DNA of 64,000 nucleotides from Chloroflexota bacterium. Its GTDB lineage: Bacteria; Chloroflexota; Dehalococcoidia; UBA2979. This document shows, in pieces, positions 29,981 to 37,315 of this stretch. Made by a program: the position numbers and the translations under genes. The notes below the pieces were generated by a model. That model did no database searches. It worked only from the letters and a program-made list of their open reading frames with translations, and was not told the origin of the DNA. How positions within the stretch are numbered: position 1 is the first letter of the stretch; every line of letters starts with the position of its first letter. The stretch covers positions 15,945 to 79,944 of the forward strand of contig VXMU01000044.1 in NCBI GenBank assembly GCA_009840945.1, written 5' to 3'.

Positions 29981-30061
29981 GCCCGCGACGCTACGAACGC
30001 CCCTCGGCAGTGTCAACGCGGGTCCGTGGCCCGCGCGCCGGGCGCCACCTACGATCGGCGC

Positions 30062-30922
30062 ATGCGCCGTCACTCCAGGACTGCCGCGCGCCGGTTCGCG
30101 CGAGGAGCGTCTGTCGGCCTCGTCGCGCTGTGGCTGGTCGCCGCCGCGTGCCGCGGTGCGTCCGAGCCTCCCGGCGTCGTCATCGAGCCCGCCACCGCGA
30201 CGCCCTCGGTGCCGCCGACCGTCTCGGCCGCCGCCCGTACGTCCGTGGCAACGCCGACGGCCACGGCGACAGCCCCTCCGACGCGCACCGCCACGCCGAT
30301 CGCTCCTCCGACGCCCGCTCCGACCGAGTCGCCCACCGTCGAGGCAACGACGATAGCGACCGCCAGTGCCACCGCGACGGCGACACCCGCCCCCACGCCT
30401 ACGCCGACGCCGGCCGTGACCCCGGTTCCCACCTCGACGCCCTCGCCCGTGCCCGCCCCGACCCCGACACCTGTGCCGCCTCCGACGCCCACGCCGCTTC
30501 CCGTCGAGCCGACGGCGACGACCGGCGCGATCGCGGTCGAGGAGCTGCCGGTCATCGAGTTCGTGCGCGGCGACGGGTCGTCGGTGAGCCTCCGCGTGGA
30601 GGTGCCGCCGCTTTCCGAGTACAGCGTCGGGCTCTCCGGGCGGTACGAGCTGGGGGAGCGCGGCATGCTGTTCCACTACCCGGACGACTCGCGCGCGCGC
30701 CCGTTCTGGATGCGCAACACCCACATCGACCTCGATATCGCCTTCGTGGGCGCGGACTTCGTGATCATCGACATCCAGCGCATGACGGCCGACACCGACG
30801 ACCTGCACCGGCCCGACCGCGGCTACATGTATGCCGTCGAGGCGCACGCCGGGTGGTACGAGGCGAACGGGATCGCGGTCGGCGACGTGATGTGGCTGCG
30901 GTTCGAGTTGCCCGAGGAGTGA
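30062..30922 (+). CDS. DUF192-domain protein with an N-terminal signal/TM segment and a long Thr/Pro/Ala-rich linker
   Basis: C-terminal ..GMLFHYPDDSRARPFWMRNTHIDLDIAFVGADFVIIDIQRM.. matches DUF192 (COG1430). Confidence 0.65.
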   Translation: MRRHSRTAARRFARGASVGLVALWLVAAACRGASEPPGVVIEPATATPSVPPTVSAAARTSVATPTATATAPPTRTATPIAPPTPAPTESPTVEATTIATASATATATPAPTPTPTPAVTPVPTSTPSPVPAPTPTPVPPPTPTPLPVEPTATTGAIAVEELPVIEFVRGDGSSVSLRVEVPPLSEYSVGLSGRYELGERGMLFHYPDDSRARPFWMRNTHIDLDIAFVGADFVIIDIQRMTADTDDLHRPDRGYMYAVEAHAGWYEANGIAVGDVMWLRFELPEE

Positions 30923-30988: not shown

Positions 30989-31654
30989 ATGACCGGCGAT
31001 CTGACCTTCGACCACAACGGCCAGCACGTGGAGGGCTACCTCTCCGAGCCCGAGGGCACTCCTCGCGCCGGAGTGGTCGTGATCCAGGAGTGGTGGGGCC
31101 TCAACGATGACATCAAGGGCATCGCTGACCGCTTCGCCGCCGAGGGCTACGTGGCCTTCGCACCCGACCTCTACGACGGCGTGGTCTCCACCGAGCCCGA
31201 CGAGGCGCTGAAGCTGGCGATGGCGCTGGAGCGCGACGTCGCGAGCCAGGTGGTCGACGCAGCGCTGAACTGGCTGAAGGCCGAGCACGGCGTGTCGAAG
31301 ACCGGCTGTATCGGGTTCTGCATGGGCGGCGGCCTGACGCTGGCCGCGGCCATGCGGCCGACCTCGAACGTGGACGCGGTCCACGTCTTCTACGGCGGCG
31401 GGATGCCATCGGCGGAGGAGCTCGGGACGATCACCTGCCCGGTCATGGGCTCGTACGGTGCGACCGACGAGAGCATCCCGGCCGACCAGGTGGACATGCT
31501 GCGCAGCACCCTCGAGGGCCGCGTCCCCACGGACGTGGTGCTCTACGACGGCGCCGGGCACTCGTTCTTCAATGCCGGCGAGGCGTTCCACACAGAGGCG
31601 GCAGCCGACGCATGGGGCCGCACGCTGCAGTGGTTCGGCGACCACCTGTCGTAG
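30989..31654 (+). CDS. Dienelactone hydrolase-family protein
   Basis: ..GVVVIQEWWGLNDDIKGIADRFAAEGYVAFAPDLY..; nucleophile region CIGFCMGGG. Confidence 0.8.
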   Translation: MTGDLTFDHNGQHVEGYLSEPEGTPRAGVVVIQEWWGLNDDIKGIADRFAAEGYVAFAPDLYDGVVSTEPDEALKLAMALERDVASQVVDAALNWLKAEHGVSKTGCIGFCMGGGLTLAAAMRPTSNVDAVHVFYGGGMPSAEELGTITCPVMGSYGATDESIPADQVDMLRSTLEGRVPTDVVLYDGAGHSFFNAGEAFHTEAAADAWGRTLQWFGDHLS

Positions 31655-31708
31655 CCGACGGCTGAGTCGTGGGTGGGGCGTCGTGGGGGCGGCGTCCCGC
31701 GAGCACAA

Positions 31709-31733
31709 CCCCGCTCGATCACCGTCGAGGCGT
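31709..31733. repeat. Left copy of a 25-bp direct repeat (CCCGCTCGATCACCGTCGAGGCGTG) that duplicates the 3' end of the GAF gene; putative attL-like islet boundary
   Basis: Identical 25-mer at 31709-31733 and 32746-32770; translated on the minus strand the left copy reads ..ARHASTVIER.., identical to the GAF protein C-terminus, followed immediately by low-GC DNA. Confidence 0.7.
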
Positions 31734-31851
31734 GGCGCGCGGAGCGCGGGTCACGCACGCACGCGATATTACAAATGAGAACTTGCCATAGCATTTCCTC
31801 CGATGTACCGTCTGACACGATCGGGTGCGACACGAATCGGGGGAGGTCGCG

Positions 31852-32121
31852 ATGCACACGAAGTCAACGTTCCGCCTGAAGGGCCGGATCACGCCCAGCA
31901 CGTTCTCGCACGAGCGCCTGTTCAGCGTTGAAGGCGCCGATGGGTACACGATCTACGTGATCGTCCCCCTCAAGGACCTTGAGGAACGTGATGGCGACCT
32001 GACGGCGGAGGTGGTGGTCGTTGGGCGCTCAGGAGAGTTCTCGCTGGTGACCGTTCCGGGCGAACCGGTAGAGACCGGTCAGACCGTCTGGGTGCCTGAG
32101 CAGGATCTGATTCCTGCGTGA
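31852..32121 (+). CDS. Small hypothetical protein (89 aa) in the low-GC islet
   Basis: ATG preceded by GGGGGAGG; its stop overlaps the downstream GTG start (GTGA); no family recognised. Confidence 0.5.
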   Translation: MHTKSTFRLKGRITPSTFSHERLFSVEGADGYTIYVIVPLKDLEERDGDLTAEVVVVGRSGEFSLVTVPGEPVETGQTVWVPEQDLIPA

Positions 32122-32720
32122 TCCTCAGTAACAGCGCGCTCTACGAGGCGCTCGACGACGGCCGCCTGATCCTCGACCCCGAACCCGAGCGCTCGGTCAG
32201 GGAGGGGTCGCAATTCGGTACGTCCGCAGTCGATCTCCGTCTTGGGTCTGTGATCGCGAGGCCCAGGGAGGCACCACACGCCGTGCTTGATCTCGGACGG
32301 CCCGGCCCGATCGGTGACACGCTCGATGCCTTCACGGACGAGTTCGAGATGGGCGACGCCGGCTACGTGCTGGAACCGGGACCGCAGAACCTCATCCTTG
32401 GGCACACGCTGGAAACGATACGACTGCCGCTGTCCGAGCGCCTGGATCGGCGCGCGGACGGCAAGCCCGTCCTGGCCGCGCGCATCGAAGGTAAGAGCTC
32501 TCGTGCTCGATTCGGCCTGCTCGTCCACTTCACAGCGCCCACCATCCATGCCGGATGGTCGGGGTCCATCGCGCTGGAGATGATGTGTCTCGGGCGGTAT
32601 CCACTGCGGCTCTACCCCGGCCTCCCGATCTGCCAGCTGATAGTCGAGGAGGTCCGCGGTCGGCCGACTGCAGCCGCGAGCGAGTTCCAGGGTCAGCGTC
32701 GACCGACCGGCGGGTCGTAG
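32118..32720 (+). CDS. dCTP deaminase/dUTPase-superfamily protein (Dcd-like), islet-borne
   Basis: ..GKSSRARFGLLVHFTAPTIHAGWSGSIALEMMCLG.. aligns to the Dcd catalytic region (GRSSLARLGL.VH.TA..IDPGW.G.I.LE). Confidence 0.7.
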   Translation: MILSNSALYEALDDGRLILDPEPERSVREGSQFGTSAVDLRLGSVIARPREAPHAVLDLGRPGPIGDTLDAFTDEFEMGDAGYVLEPGPQNLILGHTLETIRLPLSERLDRRADGKPVLAARIEGKSSRARFGLLVHFTAPTIHAGWSGSIALEMMCLGRYPLRLYPGLPICQLIVEEVRGRPTAAASEFQGQRRPTGGS

Positions 32721-32733
32721 CCGCGCAAGTCCG

Positions 32734-33258
32734 CTAGTACCACTCCCGCTCGATCACCGTCGAGGCGTGCCGGGCGAGGGTGACGAGGATGCGCTCGTCC
32801 TGGTCGTCGAACGGCTTGCCGTCGTCGCGGTCGGTCACGTAGAGCGAGCCGCGCACGTGGCCCGCACTCCAGATCGGCACGCCGATCAGCGCCTCCATCT
32901 CCGGATGGTGCGGCGGGAACCCGAACGCGCGAGGCGAGTGCTGGACGTTCTCGAACCGCACCGGACGCCCGTCGGCGCGCAGCGAGCTGAGCGGGCCGTG
33001 CGCCTGCGGCGGCGTCCGCAGGCCGCGCAGGTCGTCCGCCGACAGCCCCGAGGTGACGAACCCCTGCGTCATGTCGTGCTCGTCGGTCACCGCGAGGGCG
33101 CCGTACTTCGCGTGCGTCATTTCGCGGGCGAGGTCGACGACGAGCTGTAACGACTCGTCGGGCCGGCGGCGCGCCGGGAGCCGCTTCACGCCGCGCGCGA
33201 GCGCGCGCAGCGCCCGCCGTTCGGGGTCGCGTCGCAGGAGCCGGTCGGTCAGCTTCAT
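32734..33258 (-). CDS. GAF-domain protein
   Basis: 174-aa GAF-like fold (..LAREMTHAKYGALAVTDEHDMTQGFVTSG..ALIGVPIWSAGHVRGSLYVTDRDDGKPFDDQD..). Confidence 0.65.
   Translation of the reverse strand: MKLTDRLLRRDPERRALRALARGVKRLPARRRPDESLQLVVDLAREMTHAKYGALAVTDEHDMTQGFVTSGLSADDLRGLRTPPQAHGPLSSLRADGRPVRFENVQHSPRAFGFPPHHPEMEALIGVPIWSAGHVRGSLYVTDRDDGKPFDDQDERILVTLARHASTVIEREWY
32746..32770. repeat. Right copy of the 25-bp direct repeat (lies within the genuine 3' end of the GAF gene)
   Basis: See left copy. Confidence 0.7.
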
Positions 33259-33304: not shown

Positions 33305-34357
33305 CTATCGCCTGTAGCAGCGCAGCGTCGCGGGATCGACGGCGAGCGCGACGGGGCTCCCGGGTGCGGGCGGCTCGTCGCGCGCGTCCCACCGAACCTC
33401 GACATAACGCACAGCCGAGAGGGCCCCGATCGCGACCTCGAGCACCCGGAGCGGCCCCTCGGGCTGCGCACCGACGACGGTGCCGCGCGCGCCCGAGTCC
33501 CGCGCGTCGCCGGTGGGGACCGCCGTCATCGCCGAGGGGTGCGCCATGACCAGCACCGGCCCCTCGAGGGGCTCGGGCACGGCGACGGAGCCGACACCGG
33601 ACTCCTCGACGCGCCCGTCGCGTGCGTCCCCCTCGACCAGCCGCACCCAACCGACCATCGACGCCACCTCGGGGCTCGCCGGCTCCGCCAGCACGGTGTG
33701 CAGCGACCCCGCCTGGAGCACGCGCCCGGCGTCGAGCGCGACGAGGTCGTCGGCCAGCGCCTGCGCGTCGCGCAGGTCGTGGCTGACGAGCAGGGCGGTC
33801 GTCTCGAGGCGTTCGAGGAGTCCTCGCAGCTCGCGCCGCAGCTCGCGCTTGCGTGCCTCGTCGAGGGCGCCGAGCGGCTCATCGAGCAGCAGCACGGCCG
33901 GCTCCGGGGCGAGCGCGCGCGCCAGGCCCACGCGCTGACGCTCGCCGCCCGAGAGCGCGTCGACGCGTCTCCCGCCGAGGGCCTCGATGCCCACGAGCGC
34001 GAGCAGCTCGTCGACGCGACGCTCGCGGCGGTCGCGCGGCCACCTCGCCATGCGCAGGCCGAAGGCGACGTTGGCGCGCACGTCGAGGTGGGGGAAGAGC
34101 GCCAGCTCCTGGAACATCAGCCCCACGCCGCGCCGGTGCGGCGCGCGGCCGAGCACCGACGCGCCGTCGAGCTGCACGTCGCCGCCCTCGGGCCGTTCGA
34201 GGCCCGCGATCAGCCGCAGGATGGTGGTCTTGCCGCTCCCCGATGGCCCGAGGAGCGCCGCCACGCGCCCGTCGGCCACCTCGAAGCTCACGCCGTCGAC
34301 GACGCGGCGGGCGGCCTCGTAGCCGTGGGTCAGTTCGCGGACGGTGAGGGTCGCCAC
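33305..34357 (-). CDS. ABC transporter ATP-binding protein with a C-terminal TOBE domain (thiamine/iron(III)/polyamine importer type)
   Basis: Walker A GPSGSGKTT, signature LSGGERQR, Walker B LLLDEPLGALD, TOBE-like C-terminus. Confidence 0.85.
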   Translation of the reverse strand: MATLTVRELTHGYEAARRVVDGVSFEVADGRVAALLGPSGSGKTTILRLIAGLERPEGGDVQLDGASVLGRAPHRRGVGLMFQELALFPHLDVRANVAFGLRMARWPRDRRERRVDELLALVGIEALGGRRVDALSGGERQRVGLARALAPEPAVLLLDEPLGALDEARKRELRRELRGLLERLETTALLVSHDLRDAQALADDLVALDAGRVLQAGSLHTVLAEPASPEVASMVGWVRLVEGDARDGRVEESGVGSVAVPEPLEGPVLVMAHPSAMTAVPTGDARDSGARGTVVGAQPEGPLRVLEVAIGALSAVRYVEVRWDARDEPPAPGSPVALAVDPATLRCYRR

Positions 34358-34360
34358 GGG

Positions 34361-36073
34361 TCAGAACTCGCCGATGTCGCGGTAGCGCACGCGCTCGATG
34401 AGCAGCAGCGCGGCGGCCGTGACGGTCATGAGGATGGTGGCCATCGCCAGCGCCTGCCCGAGGTTGGCGAGACCCGGCCGGCCGAGTGAGGTGTAGATGG
34501 CGACCGGCAGCGTGGCGAACTCGCGGCGCTGCAGCACCGCGGTCGCGCCGAACTCGCCGAGCGAGACCACGAAGGCGAACCCCGCGCCGACGAGGAGCGC
34601 GCGCCACGCCAGGGGCAACTCGACGTAACGCCACGCGGCGAGCGGCGAAGCGCCGAGTACGCGCGCTGCCTCGGGCAGCCGCGGGTCGAGCGTGCGCAGC
34701 ACGGCGAGCGCGGCGCGCAGCACGAAGGGGTACGCGATGAGCGCGTGCGCGATCACGATCAGCCACGGCGAGCCTCGGAGGTCCGTGACGCCGCTGTTGA
34801 ACGTGATCAGGAACCCGAAGCCCAGCACGACCGCAGGCACCGCGAGGGGCGCCATCAGCAGCCCGTCGGCGAGCGCCGCGAGGCGTCCTCGCGAGCGCGC
34901 GATGGCGGTCGCGGCGAGCGTGCCCAGCACGACCGCGATCAGCGCTGCCCCGCCGGCGAAGGTCACGCTCCAGCGCATGGCGTTGAGCGGCTCGACGAAC
35001 GAGAGCCGCCCGGGGTCCTCGAACGCGCGCGTGAAGTTCGCCGCGGTGACGCCGCCCGATGCGCCGATGGTGAACGCGCCGTGCACGAGCGCAGCGAGCG
35101 GCGCGACGATCAGCAGCGCGAGCACGACCGCCACGCCGAGCGCGAGCCCACGCTCGGCCCACGAGGTGTCACGGAGGGCTCGGGAGCGCTCGCTGCGCTG
35201 CGTGAGCGGGCGCGCGGTGCGGCGCTGGAGCAGCGAGTAGGCGCCCAGCACCGCGACGGTCGTCGCGATCTGCACGGTTGACAGCACTGCCGCCGCGGGC
35301 AGCTCGACCAGCCGGATCGCGAGGCGATAGATGACCACCTCGAGCGTGTCGAGGCCCGGCCCCCCGAGCACGAGCACGACGCCGAACGAGGTGAACGAGA
35401 AGACGAAGACGAGCGCCGCCGCCGACGCGATCGCGGGGGCGAGCGCCGGCAGCGTCACCTCGCGCAGCGTCGCCCAGCGGCCCGCGCCGAGCAGGCGCGC
35501 GGCCTCCTCGGTGCGCGGGTCGAGGTTCGCCCACACGCCCGCGACGAGGCGGATCACGATCGAGACGTTGTAGAAGACGTGCGCGGCAAGGATCGCCCAG
35601 ATCGTGCCGACCACCTCGACGCGCCCGAGGCCGAACCACGCGAGGGCGCTATTAAGCAGGCCGTCTGGGCCCGCGAGCTGCTGGAACGCGAGCGCGACGA
35701 CGAGGGTCGGCAGCACGAACGGCACGGTGACGAGCGCCCTCGCCACCGCGCGGCCGGGGAAGCGGATGTGCGCGAAGACGTACGCCGACGGGAGCCCCAC
35801 GAGCAGCGCGACGGCCGTCGAGGCGGCGGCCTGCGCCGTGGTGAAGACGAGCCGGTCCCAGTAGTAGCCGTCGCCGAGCACGTCCGCAATCGCGGCGGCA
35901 TCCGGGACCCCCTCGGGCGCGAGGCCTCGCCACAGGATCGTGGCAAGGGGCCACAACAACAGCGGGAGCAGCACCACGAGCACCGGCAGCGCCCACGGCC
36001 CGGCCCTCGGCGCGCCGGCCGCTCGTCCCACGGGCGTCGGCGGAGACGGGGTGACCCCGCCGGCTCCGATCAT
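34361..36073 (-). CDS. Fused double-domain ABC transporter permease (ThiP/FbpB-like)
   Basis: Two tandem permease modules with EAA-like loops (..EEAARLLGAGRWATLREVTLP.. and ..PEAARVLGASPLAAWRYVELP..); its ATG overlaps the upstream gene stop. Confidence 0.8.
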   Translation of the reverse strand: MIGAGGVTPSPPTPVGRAAGAPRAGPWALPVLVVLLPLLLWPLATILWRGLAPEGVPDAAAIADVLGDGYYWDRLVFTTAQAAASTAVALLVGLPSAYVFAHIRFPGRAVARALVTVPFVLPTLVVALAFQQLAGPDGLLNSALAWFGLGRVEVVGTIWAILAAHVFYNVSIVIRLVAGVWANLDPRTEEAARLLGAGRWATLREVTLPALAPAIASAAALVFVFSFTSFGVVLVLGGPGLDTLEVVIYRLAIRLVELPAAAVLSTVQIATTVAVLGAYSLLQRRTARPLTQRSERSRALRDTSWAERGLALGVAVVLALLIVAPLAALVHGAFTIGASGGVTAANFTRAFEDPGRLSFVEPLNAMRWSVTFAGGAALIAVVLGTLAATAIARSRGRLAALADGLLMAPLAVPAVVLGFGFLITFNSGVTDLRGSPWLIVIAHALIAYPFVLRAALAVLRTLDPRLPEAARVLGASPLAAWRYVELPLAWRALLVGAGFAFVVSLGEFGATAVLQRREFATLPVAIYTSLGRPGLANLGQALAMATILMTVTAAALLLIERVRYRDIGEF

Positions 36074-37149
36074 CGACGCATGATCTCCGTCCACTCGCGG
36101 ATCCAGCGGTCGACATCCTCGGCAGTGAACTCGATCGAGGCTGTCTCGACGTCGACCTCGGCCCAGCTCCACCACTCGGGGAGGTCGAGGCCCGGGATCA
36201 CGGGGTAGACGAACATCGTCTCCGGGATCTGGGCCTGGAACGCGTCGCTCAGCATGAAGTCGATGAACTTGCCGGCGAGGTCAGGGTGCTCGCTGCCCTC
36301 GAGGACCGCGGCCGCCTCGACCTGGCGGAAGAGCGGGCTGGGAATCACGTTGCGGGTGGGCGGCTCGGTGAGCGGCTCCTCGGAGAAGAAGAACTCCGCG
36401 GCCGGGCTCGACGTGTACGAGACCACGAGCGGGCGGTCGCCACCGTACACGCTGAAGTGCGTGTAGTAGGCGTCGCTCCACCCGAGCTCAACGCGCACCT
36501 CGTTCTCATGCAGGTCGTGCCAGAACTGCTGCCAGCGCCCCTCGCCGAAGTACGCGATCGTCGTGGCGAGGAACTGCAGGCCGGGTGACGAGGTCGCCGG
36601 GTCCTCGACCACGAGCTTGCCACGCCACTGCCGCTCGGTGAGCTCCTCGAGCGTGGACGGCGGCTCACCGGCCGCGGGGTCGAAGTTGAGGTTCACGTAG
36701 CCGTAGTCGATGGGCGTGAGCAGCAGCGAGTCGCCGAACTGCGCGCGGACGTCGGCGGGGATGTCGCTGCGGCGGGCCGACTCGTACTCCCGGAACACGC
36801 CGGCCCTGACCGCGCGCTGGAAGCTGAGGTTGTCGACGCCGAACAGCACGTCGCCTTCGGGGTTGCCGGCGTTGAGGATGGCGCGGTTCACTACCTCGTT
36901 CGCGTCGCCCCCGGCGATCAGCTCGACTTTCGCGTTGTGCTCCTGCTCGAACTGCTCGATGAGCCCGTCGCTCACGTCGAACGAGTCGTGCGTGATGACG
37001 GTGAGCGTCGTCGGGTCCGCGGGTGCGGGCGGCTCGGGCGGCTCCTCGGGCGTCTCGGCCTCGTCGCCGCAGGCGACGGCGAGGGCAGCGAGCAGCGCGG
37101 CGGCGAGCAGCGCGAGGCTGCGGGTCAGGGTCGGGCGTCGAGCAGGCAT
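36070..37149 (-). CDS. ABC transporter substrate-binding lipoprotein (thiamine/iron-type, SBP family 1)
   Basis: Lipobox LAVAC; SBP-1 fold; first gene downstream of a TPP riboswitch. Confidence 0.8.
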   Translation of the reverse strand: MPARRPTLTRSLALLAAALLAALAVACGDEAETPEEPPEPPAPADPTTLTVITHDSFDVSDGLIEQFEQEHNAKVELIAGGDANEVVNRAILNAGNPEGDVLFGVDNLSFQRAVRAGVFREYESARRSDIPADVRAQFGDSLLLTPIDYGYVNLNFDPAAGEPPSTLEELTERQWRGKLVVEDPATSSPGLQFLATTIAYFGEGRWQQFWHDLHENEVRVELGWSDAYYTHFSVYGGDRPLVVSYTSSPAAEFFFSEEPLTEPPTRNVIPSPLFRQVEAAAVLEGSEHPDLAGKFIDFMLSDAFQAQIPETMFVYPVIPGLDLPEWWSWAEVDVETASIEFTAEDVDRWIREWTEIMRR

Positions 37150-37204
37150 CGGGAACCTCCCATGCTGGGGAGACCGCTGCCTGAGTCCGTGAAGGTAAGT
37201 ACTG

Positions 37205-37315
37205 GCAACTGAACCGCATCCCTACGCACGCATGAACGTGATCAGGTTCCAGGGGTTGGCGCGCTGCACGCCTCTCAGCCCGACGGGGCACCCCCAGCGG
37301 CCTCACTGGTTGCCG
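37205..37315 (-). promoter_or_regulatory. TPP (THI-box) riboswitch in the leader of the ABC importer operon
   Basis: Minus-strand sequence GGGGUGCCCcgucggGCUGAGAggcgugcagcgcgccAACCCcugGAACCUGAUCacguucAUGCGUGCGUAGGGAUG carries the hallmark CUGAGA, ACCUGAUC and GCGUAGGGA elements. Confidence 0.8.

Follow-up and report, generated by a model that had tools for sequence, protein, structure and literature searches.

A widespread two-gene unit of a small beta protein and a putative dUTPase-fold dCTP deaminase, found in an old insertion at the 3′ end of a GAF gene in Dehalococcoidia

Introduction

Deoxycytidine triphosphate (dCTP) deaminase, Dcd, has so far been treated as a stand-alone enzyme regulated by deoxythymidine triphosphate (dTTP), and to our knowledge no characterised dcd gene has a small upstream partner. 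Here we analyse a 64-kb stretch of a Chloroflexota genome of the class Dehalococcoidia (contig VXMU01000044.1, hereafter the window), in which a ~1-kb islet at the 3′ end of a GAF-domain gene carries two coupled genes, one for an 89-aa protein and one for a 200-aa protein of the Dcd family. Coordinates are window positions, and L-numbers denote related loci from other genomes or metagenome contigs. A preliminary description of this DNA had read the islet as a mobile and possibly defensive module.

Several described systems invite comparison. In AvcID, the deaminase is restrained by a co-encoded inhibitor. A defensive dCTP deaminase of 576 aa combines a zinc-dependent cytosine deaminase with an N-terminal kinase-like domain (Tal et al., bioRxiv 10.1101/2021.04.26.441389), and the staphylococcal repressor Stl binds and inhibits trimeric dUTPases (PMC5794464).

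The most interesting result of our analysis is a broad unannotated family of small proteins that is tightly linked to a distinct clade of dCTP deaminases. The clade is large, comes mainly from uncultured Chloroflexota and from other environmental lineages, and nearly always has a coupled small protein that no database describes.

Results

A small-protein family linked to a dCTP deaminase clade

The two islet genes overlap by the four letters GTGA (32118-32121), as the preliminary description had said and the map of open reading frames (ORFs) bears out, and the same overlap or a short gap recurs in relatives. The 89-aa protein has no match in Pfam, NCBIfam, PHROG or PADLOC, and a Pfam domain was found in none of 57 diverse members of its family. 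A word-indexed search with this protein returned just 17 close relatives. The profile search that the preliminary description had proposed uncovered a broad family: with a profile of 38 members, a search of 1.84 billion representative proteins recovered 1,068 clusters at E<=1e-3, of which 221 also pass E<=1e-10. The label “of unknown family” is therefore correct in that no described family holds the protein, but not in the sense of an isolated orphan, as its homologues accompany the Dcd clade almost everywhere. The AlphaFold (AF2) model of the protein is all-beta with nine strands (predicted local distance difference test score, pLDDT, of 88) and has no significant match in PDB or BFVD (no PDB match below E=0.3).

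Homologues of the window Dcd at 50-69% identity lie in different neighbourhoods (MOSC/PAC2, sucCD, asd/dapB and a Planctomycete-like PSCyt/DUF1501 region) and have a small ORF just upstream, usually with a 4-nt overlap; in five other contexts, these upstream ORFs are 24-48% identical to the 89-aa protein. Pairing was counted in 80 metagenome loci retrieved with a Dcd alignment. A small-protein homologue stands immediately upstream of Dcd on the same strand in 72 of them, one locus has the divergent orientation, two are without upstream sequence, and only four distinct loci are truly without a homologue. Counted over 76 related Dcd genes, ~93% have the homologue directly upstream, and their surroundings are unrelated to one another and mostly of housekeeping type. 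As far as we could find, this pairing is not described in Pfam, NCBIfam, PHROGs or PADLOC, nor in the searchable literature, where a search for a Dcd partner, inhibitor or toxin returned nothing relevant. The small protein and Dcd form a widespread, previously undescribed two-gene unit, in which a distinct Dcd clade is almost always preceded by a small-protein homologue. A separate arrangement was seen on a phage-like contig (L114), where a 180-aa protein consists of two tandem small-protein domains with no Dcd nearby; its neighbours are short same-strand ORFans and an HNH endonuclease (phrog_99).

Residues 2-178 of the 200-aa protein match PF22769 DCD (positions 1-152/153 of the model; 5.5e-26, 91.9 bits at a cutoff of 27), and a weak dUTPase match is its only other Pfam content. 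The protein contains EGKSSRARFGLLVHFTAPTIHAGWSGSIALE, and the PF22769 match together with the alignment confirms the earlier assignment to the Dcd/dUTPase superfamily with the catalytic-region pattern retained. It aligns over its full length to E. coli Dcd (1XS1), keeping the GxSSxxRxG loop and the catalytic Glu (E138 in E. coli), with GKSSRARFG/ALEM opposite GRSSLARLG/VLEF; the mutant chain 2V9X differs at exactly that Glu. The catalytic residues are invariant in 14 members of the clade, which is marked by the signature motifs LAAR[IV]EG[KR]SS and HFTAPT[IV]H and often by an insertion of ~9 residues before the catalytic loop. Identity to characterised enzymes is only ~30-35%. We predict that the protein is a dUTPase-fold dCTP deaminase paralogue with an intact active site, which would convert dCTP into deoxyuridine triphosphate (dUTP). 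A second dcd or dut gene was not found within the window.

An old insertion at the 3′ end of the GAF gene

The window contains the exact 25-mer CCCGCTCGATCACCGTCGAGGCGTG at two places only, one on either side of the two genes, and none of 100 dinucleotide-preserving shuffles gave a match, even with three mismatches allowed. The preliminary description had seen both exact copies, with coordinates one base off at each end (31709-31733 and 32746-32770). It had also recognised the right copy as the genuine 3′ end of the GAF gene (minus strand, ...ARHASTVIEREWY*) and the left copy as encoding ...ARHASTVIER before diverging, and translation agrees on both counts. With mismatches allowed, the repeat grows to 32 nt (94% identity); in the window, the left copy has decayed on its outer side, around the stop codon.

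Related loci were drawn from contigs with close Dcd homologues and from GTDB species genomes scanned with a GAF protein alignment. This gave 27 loci (L001, L002, L007-L031), all from Dehalococcoidia or “Chloroflexi” metagenome-assembled genomes or metagenome contigs, among which a tblastn map distinguishes three states. The window and eight of these loci (L001, L002, L007-L012), nine genomes of which seven are species-level and two are metagenome contigs, carry a ~1-kb insert between GAF (90-98% identical) and the gene for a dienelactone hydrolase (DLH). In L001, L002 and L010-L012, the order DLH, small gene, dcd, GAF and ABC (ATP-binding cassette) operon is identical, and the duplication reaches 41-52 nt, with copies 92-100% identical, the left one still with its stop codon; the duplicated segment covers the GAF stop codon and ~9 nt past it. 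The repeats are 1035-1036 nt apart in L001 and L002, and further copies were found in L010-L012. The 25-mer is what remains in the window of a duplicated GAF 3′ end of ~50 nt, the two copies of which enclose an insert of ~1.04 kb.

In four other loci (L023, L028, L029, L031), GAF directly follows DLH stop-to-stop, the empty site that the preliminary description had suggested looking for, and in L014-L022 and L024-L027 DLH is missing and GAF adjoins the DUF192 gene. Only loci with the insert have the GAF tail twice. Because empty sites exist in relatives and the duplicate is present only where the insert is, we read the duplicated GAF 3′ end as the mark of a genuine insertion with a single entry, as had been proposed for this gene 3′ end. 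The varying presence of DLH between GAF and DUF192 among related Dehalococcoidia is an observation of its own, which points to the region downstream of GAF as a site of recurrent gene gain and loss.

The insertion does not look recent. Presence/absence polymorphism was not found among close relatives: every relative with DLH-GAF at a GAF identity of at least 90% has the insert, and empty sites occur only at 67-72%. Dcd identity (90, 82, 78, 77%) ranks in the same order as GAF identity. The preliminary description's recent, strain-level islet does not fit an insert and duplication common to a clade with Dcd identities down to 77%. It had named cassette and repeat at the same place in all relatives as grounds for giving up its reading; this arrangement does hold within the close clade, and distant relatives have the empty site. 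The insert is therefore old, has been inherited vertically through several species-level splits, and is not an active mobile element.

No recombinase or integrase lies within the islet, as had been noted before; only two coding ORFs stand between the repeats, with DLH and GAF as flanks. Of the features of a site-specific integrative element, repeats at the target 3′ end and empty sites are thus present, and an integrase in or beside the islet is not. The ~50-nt duplication may have arisen when an integrase, lost since then, inserted the segment, or when a circular intermediate entered by a Campbell-type single crossover. In L004-L006, where the pair has other surroundings, no flanking repeats were found.

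Concerted evolution of the repeats was considered and rejected. Both window copies share GAGGCGTG where most relatives have GACGCGTG, and the underlying synonymous C/G site flips independently in the two copies, being G on the left and C on the right in L011 and the reverse in L012; the shared GAGGCGTG was therefore dismissed as a sign of gene conversion or of ongoing excision and integration.

Cargo turnover in the slot

The three loci closest to the window (L007-L009, GAF 98% identical) have the small-gene/dcd pair replaced by a PIN/VapC-type pair, whose genes overlap by GTGA; one product (89 aa) weakly matches the AbrB family (1.6e-4), and the other (137 aa) has a PIN domain (1e-16). In the alignments, three pieces of the Dcd-type locus survive here: the left copy of the GAF tail, the leader with its high AT content (TATTACAAATGMGAACTWGCCATA...CCGATGTAG) and ~48 nt from the end of the dcd frame. 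Since the dcd remnant and the leader were kept, the VapBC-type pair overwrote small-gene/dcd DNA and not the reverse. In L011, dcd is a pseudogene with several lesions, namely a premature TAA in frame near codon 19, four frameshifting indels (+1, -4, -2 and +14 nt) and a 14-nt tandem duplication; the small gene next to it is intact and scores among the best against the family profile. Replacement in one case and decay in the other imply that Dcd is dispensable in at least two sublineages. The locus offers a clean case of small-cassette turnover in genomes known from metagenomes only, a 1-kb operon having been inserted and later overwritten in situ by a PIN pair.

Genomic context

Elsewhere, the immediate neighbours of the pair are ordinary metabolic and replication genes, in one locus in the order ssb-rplI-dnaB-small-Dcd, and an all-against-all comparison of 181 neighbour ORFs revealed no neighbour family recurring in more than three loci. 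PADLOC holds no family for the 89-aa or the 200-aa protein at E<=1, and the 105 immediate neighbours (one gene per side) gave only generic helicase-like matches and a single dGTPase match against defence profiles. The suggested defence-type mobile module is not supported by a pair whose immediate neighbours are of this ordinary kind and do not look like defence islands. The analogy to antiphage deaminases is not supported either, given the unrelated fold of the published enzyme and the lack of a PADLOC match.

Close relatives were absent from 72,556 plasmids and 50,697 phage genomes, which hold only canonical dcd genes at 28-40% identity. Viral contigs contained neither the att-like 26-mer or an attP-like copy nor a close Dcd, and a scan of IMG/VR with a small-protein sequence pattern found nothing. 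A profile scan of IMG/VR returned three predicted viral contigs with the pair (L115, L117 and L133), surrounded mostly by ORFans without Pfam matches and by one IrrE/ImmA-like peptidase. A phage or plasmid origin of the pair was rejected, three IMG/VR contigs being too few and the plasmid and phage collections being without close relatives.

Base composition and selection

GC content between the repeats is 65.0% (leader 60.7%, small gene 62.2%, dcd 67.0%), compared with 72-73% in the 5-kb flanks and 70.7% in the whole window. The lower GC content seen earlier is thus real, and the gap is smaller than the ~58% versus ~70% first given. The gap shows most clearly at third codon positions (GC3), where the islet genes of the window have 0.78-0.79 and their neighbours 0.90-0.95. 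The ratio of non-synonymous to synonymous divergence (dN/dS) is 0.07-0.26 for the small gene and 0.07-0.15 for dcd, which indicates strong purifying selection on both.

Leader and hairpins

An AT-rich leader precedes the small gene; it is unique in the window, confined to this type of locus and presumed to be the promoter region of the cassette. Scans for sigma-70 promoters and intrinsic terminators over 31500-33000 gave no matches. Two conserved hairpins bracket the left repeat copy (Table 1). In a RNAalifold analysis of nine loci, the pairs of the outer hairpin are kept in all, with compensatory changes at two pairs, and the outer end of the ~50-nt duplication forms its 3′ arm. The inner hairpin is present in Dcd-type and VapBC-type loci alike. 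These hairpins may explain why the left copy is better conserved than the DNA around it.

Control of the pair by LexA was also considered. Palindromes resembling LexA boxes of the Gram-positive type (GAAC-N4-GTTC) lie upstream of the small gene, perfect in L035 (GAACAGGTGTTC) and L069 (GAACATGCGTTC) and nearly so in L004, L006 and L034. The enrichment is weak, with nine upstream occurrences compared with six in the coding control and a shuffle mean of 4.3, and LexA/SOS control was not adopted.

Table 1. Features of the islet, its flanks and selected related loci
Feature	Locus	Positions	Strand	Remarks
DUF192 gene	window	30026-30922	+	
DLH gene, left flank of the site	window	30989-31654	+	PF01738 DLH, 1.6e-51; stop-to-stop with GAF in empty-site relatives
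Conserved 13-bp hairpin between DLH stop and left repeat	window	31672-31701	+	Terminator-like, no U-tract
Left displaced copy of GAF 3′ end (pseudo-3′ end)	window	31693-31741	+	Contains exact 25-mer, 31710-31734
Second conserved hairpin, inner end of left copy and first insert bases	window	31732-31754	+	10 pairs, two with changes on both sides; no U-tract
AT-rich conserved leader (ATATTACAAATGAGAACTTGCCATAGC...CCGATGTA)	window	31766-31807	+	Near-invariant in nine loci, including three with PIN pair
89-aa ORF	window	31852-32121	+	ATG start preceded by GGGGGAGG
200-aa Dcd-family ORF	window	32118-32720	+	GTG start; PF22769 match
Right copy, functional GAF 3′ end and a few bases past the stop	window	32728-32776	+	Contains 25-mer, 32745-32769
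GAF-domain gene	window	32734-33258	-	PF13185 and PF01590; 90-98% identical in relatives; last 41 nt the insertion target
ABC operon (binding protein, permease, ATPase)	window	~33305-37150	-	
Thiamine pyrophosphate (TPP) riboswitch	window	37202-37305	-	RF00059, 73.5 bits
PIN-type pair	L007	5601-6280	-	Also in L008 and L009
dcd pseudogene	L011	5536-6147	-	
Canonical dcd, small-protein homologue, partnered-clade Dcd	L094	490-1923	+	Also in L096
Tandem small-domain protein	L114	3001-3543	+	180 aa
Small-gene/dcd pair	L115	3681-4606		
Small-gene/dcd pair	L117	3726-4567		

Flanking genes

The GAF gene lies immediately downstream of a minus-strand ABC operon for a binding protein, a permease and an ATPase. 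As a TPP riboswitch heads this operon, it probably encodes a thiamine transporter. On the other side of the site, the DUF192 gene is overlapped by a long antisense ORF, and Thr, Pro and Ala abound in the N-terminal ~150 residues of its protein (PTPTPAPT repeats); the stretch looks like a low-complexity linker, possibly of a secreted or anchored protein.

Discussion

The explanation that we favour, with moderate confidence, is that the cassette encodes a two-component dCTP deaminase that is regulated, and probably restrained, by its coupled small protein in a stoichiometric manner; we infer the activity, the binding and the direction of the regulation. A ~1.04-kb segment entered the last 41 nt of the GAF gene in the common ancestor of a Dehalococcoidia clade and duplicated ~50 nt on entry (41 nt of coding sequence, the stop codon and ~9 nt past it), so that the right copy completes GAF while the left one is a slowly decaying relic and the insert has since then been inherited vertically. 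The cargo is a self-contained operon made up of the AT-rich leader, the 89-aa all-beta protein and the 200-aa dUTPase-fold Dcd. In the proposed scheme, Dcd turns dCTP into dUTP for the branch leading to deoxyuridine monophosphate (dUMP) and dTTP, and the small protein, made in fixed proportion through translational coupling, would bind Dcd as a regulatory, probably restraining, subunit. The housekeeping-type neighbours, the absence of a PADLOC match, the absence of close relatives from the plasmid and phage collections, the conserved catalytic residues, the purifying selection and the unrelated fold of the defensive deaminases support a metabolic role.

Several findings weigh against this explanation. 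The window Dcd scores 86.7 bits, under the TIGR02274 equivalog cutoff of 92.8, a cutoff that its clade relatives straddle (86-119 bits). In one lineage (L094, L096), a canonical dcd (TIGR02274, 148.8 bits) stands immediately upstream of the pair, forming a one-strand row with the small-protein homologue and a partnered-clade Dcd of 119 bits, so that in this lineage the pair cannot simply be taken for “the” dcd. Two losses of Dcd occurred among ~10 related genomes, by PIN replacement in L007-L009 and by decay in L011, and the pair is thereby lost or replaced in four of the ~10. GC3 was compared in eight contexts (window, L001, L002, L004-L006, L032, L033) and is below that of the neighbours in all of them, by 0.1-0.25 in seven (cassette 0.71-0.84, neighbours 0.89-0.98) and by less in L032, where the neighbours have 0.76-0.83; the replacing PIN pair has a similar GC3. 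Synonymous divergence of the cassette at 4-fold sites is usually 2-10 times that of the four flanking genes. Between L001 and L002, for example, the synonymous divergence (dS) is 1.41 for dcd, 0.11 for GAF and 0.13 for DLH; an exception is the comparison of the window with L010, where dcd is at ~1x flank level. Part of the excess may come from extreme GC3 constraint on the flanks, and relaxed GC-biased conversion, allele exchange or selection may underlie the low GC3 and the raised divergence. Finally, no recombinase was found at the islet. Low GC3, raised divergence, losses, the coexisting dcd and the TIGR02274 shortfall are easier to reconcile with a module that is accessory or harmful under some conditions than with a plain housekeeping enzyme.

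Such a module could be a toxin–antitoxin (TA)-like or abortive-infection system, in which Dcd depletes dCTP and floods the cell with dUTP while the small protein restrains it. If the small protein were lost or titrated away, as might happen on phage infection, Dcd would be freed, making the pair a protein-based, dUTPase-fold analogue of AvcD/AvcI and of the kinase-deaminase systems. We consider this the main rival, though an unlikely one. The gene order, with the small gene ahead of the enzyme gene and a 4-nt overlap between them, is that of type II TA pairs, and in the closest relatives a PIN plus AbrB-like pair fills this slot behind the shared leader. The GC3 of the cassette, low in every context, its usually raised synonymous divergence and the canonical dcd beside it in L094 and L096 point the same way, and the tandem small-domain protein without Dcd on the phage-like contig could be an anti-defence decoy. 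The decayed enzyme gene next to an intact small gene in L011 counts for the idea as well, but that a small gene of 270 nt was spared is only mildly surprising given five lesions in a 600-nt dcd (P ~0.1). Other evidence speaks against the idea. The genes are small, co-directional and coupled as in type II systems, yet the small protein is a compact, well-folded beta protein with no recognisable DNA-binding antitoxin domain and no Pfam or NCBIfam match. PADLOC gives no match, the immediate neighbours are neither defence nor mobile genes, and the plasmid and phage collections lack close relatives. Purifying selection is strong; across more than 1,000 clusters, pairing is close to universal and the pair apparently single-copy; and the published defensive dCTP deaminases have an unrelated fold. 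The wider proposal is that the pair is a new protein-protein TA or abortive-infection system, with a Dcd effector that would collapse dCTP and raise dUTP once freed from a beta-barrel inhibitor. It would be a third independent form of immunity by dCTP depletion, found in phyla that are largely uncultured and in more than 1,000 clusters, and countered by tandem inhibitor copies in phages; this strikes us as rather unlikely.

The duplicated GAF tail might instead have been kept as a regulatory element, either part of a terminator or insulator between DLH and the cassette or the source of a plus-strand antisense RNA against the 3′ end of the GAF mRNA. What speaks for this is that, in nine loci, the left copy is conserved far above the intergenic DNA on both sides and that each of its ends belongs to a conserved hairpin, some of the changes in the two hairpins being compensatory. 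The hairpins, however, lack a U-tract and the terminator scan matched nothing; moreover, the left copy decays differently by lineage, in its outer part in the window and in its inner part in L007-L009, and the C/G polymorphism varies independently in the two copies. A regulatory tail would leave the origin of the repeat unexplained and is compatible with the two-component deaminase that we favour; as an explanation of its own it seems improbable to us. That the repeat is a chance or compositional match between native neighbours, for which only the high regional GC content speaks, is next to impossible in view of the empty shuffles, the longer repeats with 1035-1036-nt spacing in relatives, their absence without the insert and the existence of empty sites.

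If the partner does regulate or restrain Dcd, as in the two-component deaminase, the family would represent an unrecognised layer of control on the dCTP/dTTP balance and hence on mutation rate and uracil in DNA; if the small protein is an antitoxin, the pair would define a new nucleotide-depletion module.

Comparison with known systems

Housekeeping Dcd proteins (E. coli 1XS1; the bifunctional Dcd-Dut of M. tuberculosis, 2QXX; PF22769, TIGR02274) share with the window Dcd the fold family, the loop, the catalytic Glu and presumably the reaction. The window Dcd differs from them in belonging to a distinct clade with signature motifs of its own and almost always with a small upstream partner. To the defensive dCTP deaminases (Tal et al.; AvcD/DcdV with AvcI/DifV RNA) the likeness is one of nominal chemistry, the deamination of deoxycytidine nucleotides, whereas the window Dcd has 200 aa, a dUTPase-like fold, neither zinc deaminase nor kinase domain, no PADLOC match, and no defence-island context among its immediate neighbours.

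Type II TA systems such as VapBC, with a PIN toxin and an AbrB-type antitoxin, resemble the cassette in having the small gene first, a 4-nt overlap, a total of ~0.9 kb and low GC3. In contrast to VapBC, the small protein has no antitoxin DNA-binding domain, Dcd belongs to no known toxin family, and the pair is near-universal in its clade and found among housekeeping genes. With elements that integrate at gene 3′ ends (attL/attR), the islet shares direct repeats that restore the target, an intact target frame and empty sites; it differs in having no integrase, a length of ~1 kb, two cargo genes, fixation in a clade and no attP-like copy in viral contigs.

The last comparison concerns the proposed control of a dUTPase-fold enzyme by a separate protein. 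Stl is a helical repressor of a phage island and is not co-operonic with its target, whereas the small protein of the islet, the putative regulator of Dcd, is an unrelated beta protein. What Stl provides is a precedent for a separate protein that binds and inhibits an enzyme of the dUTPase fold.

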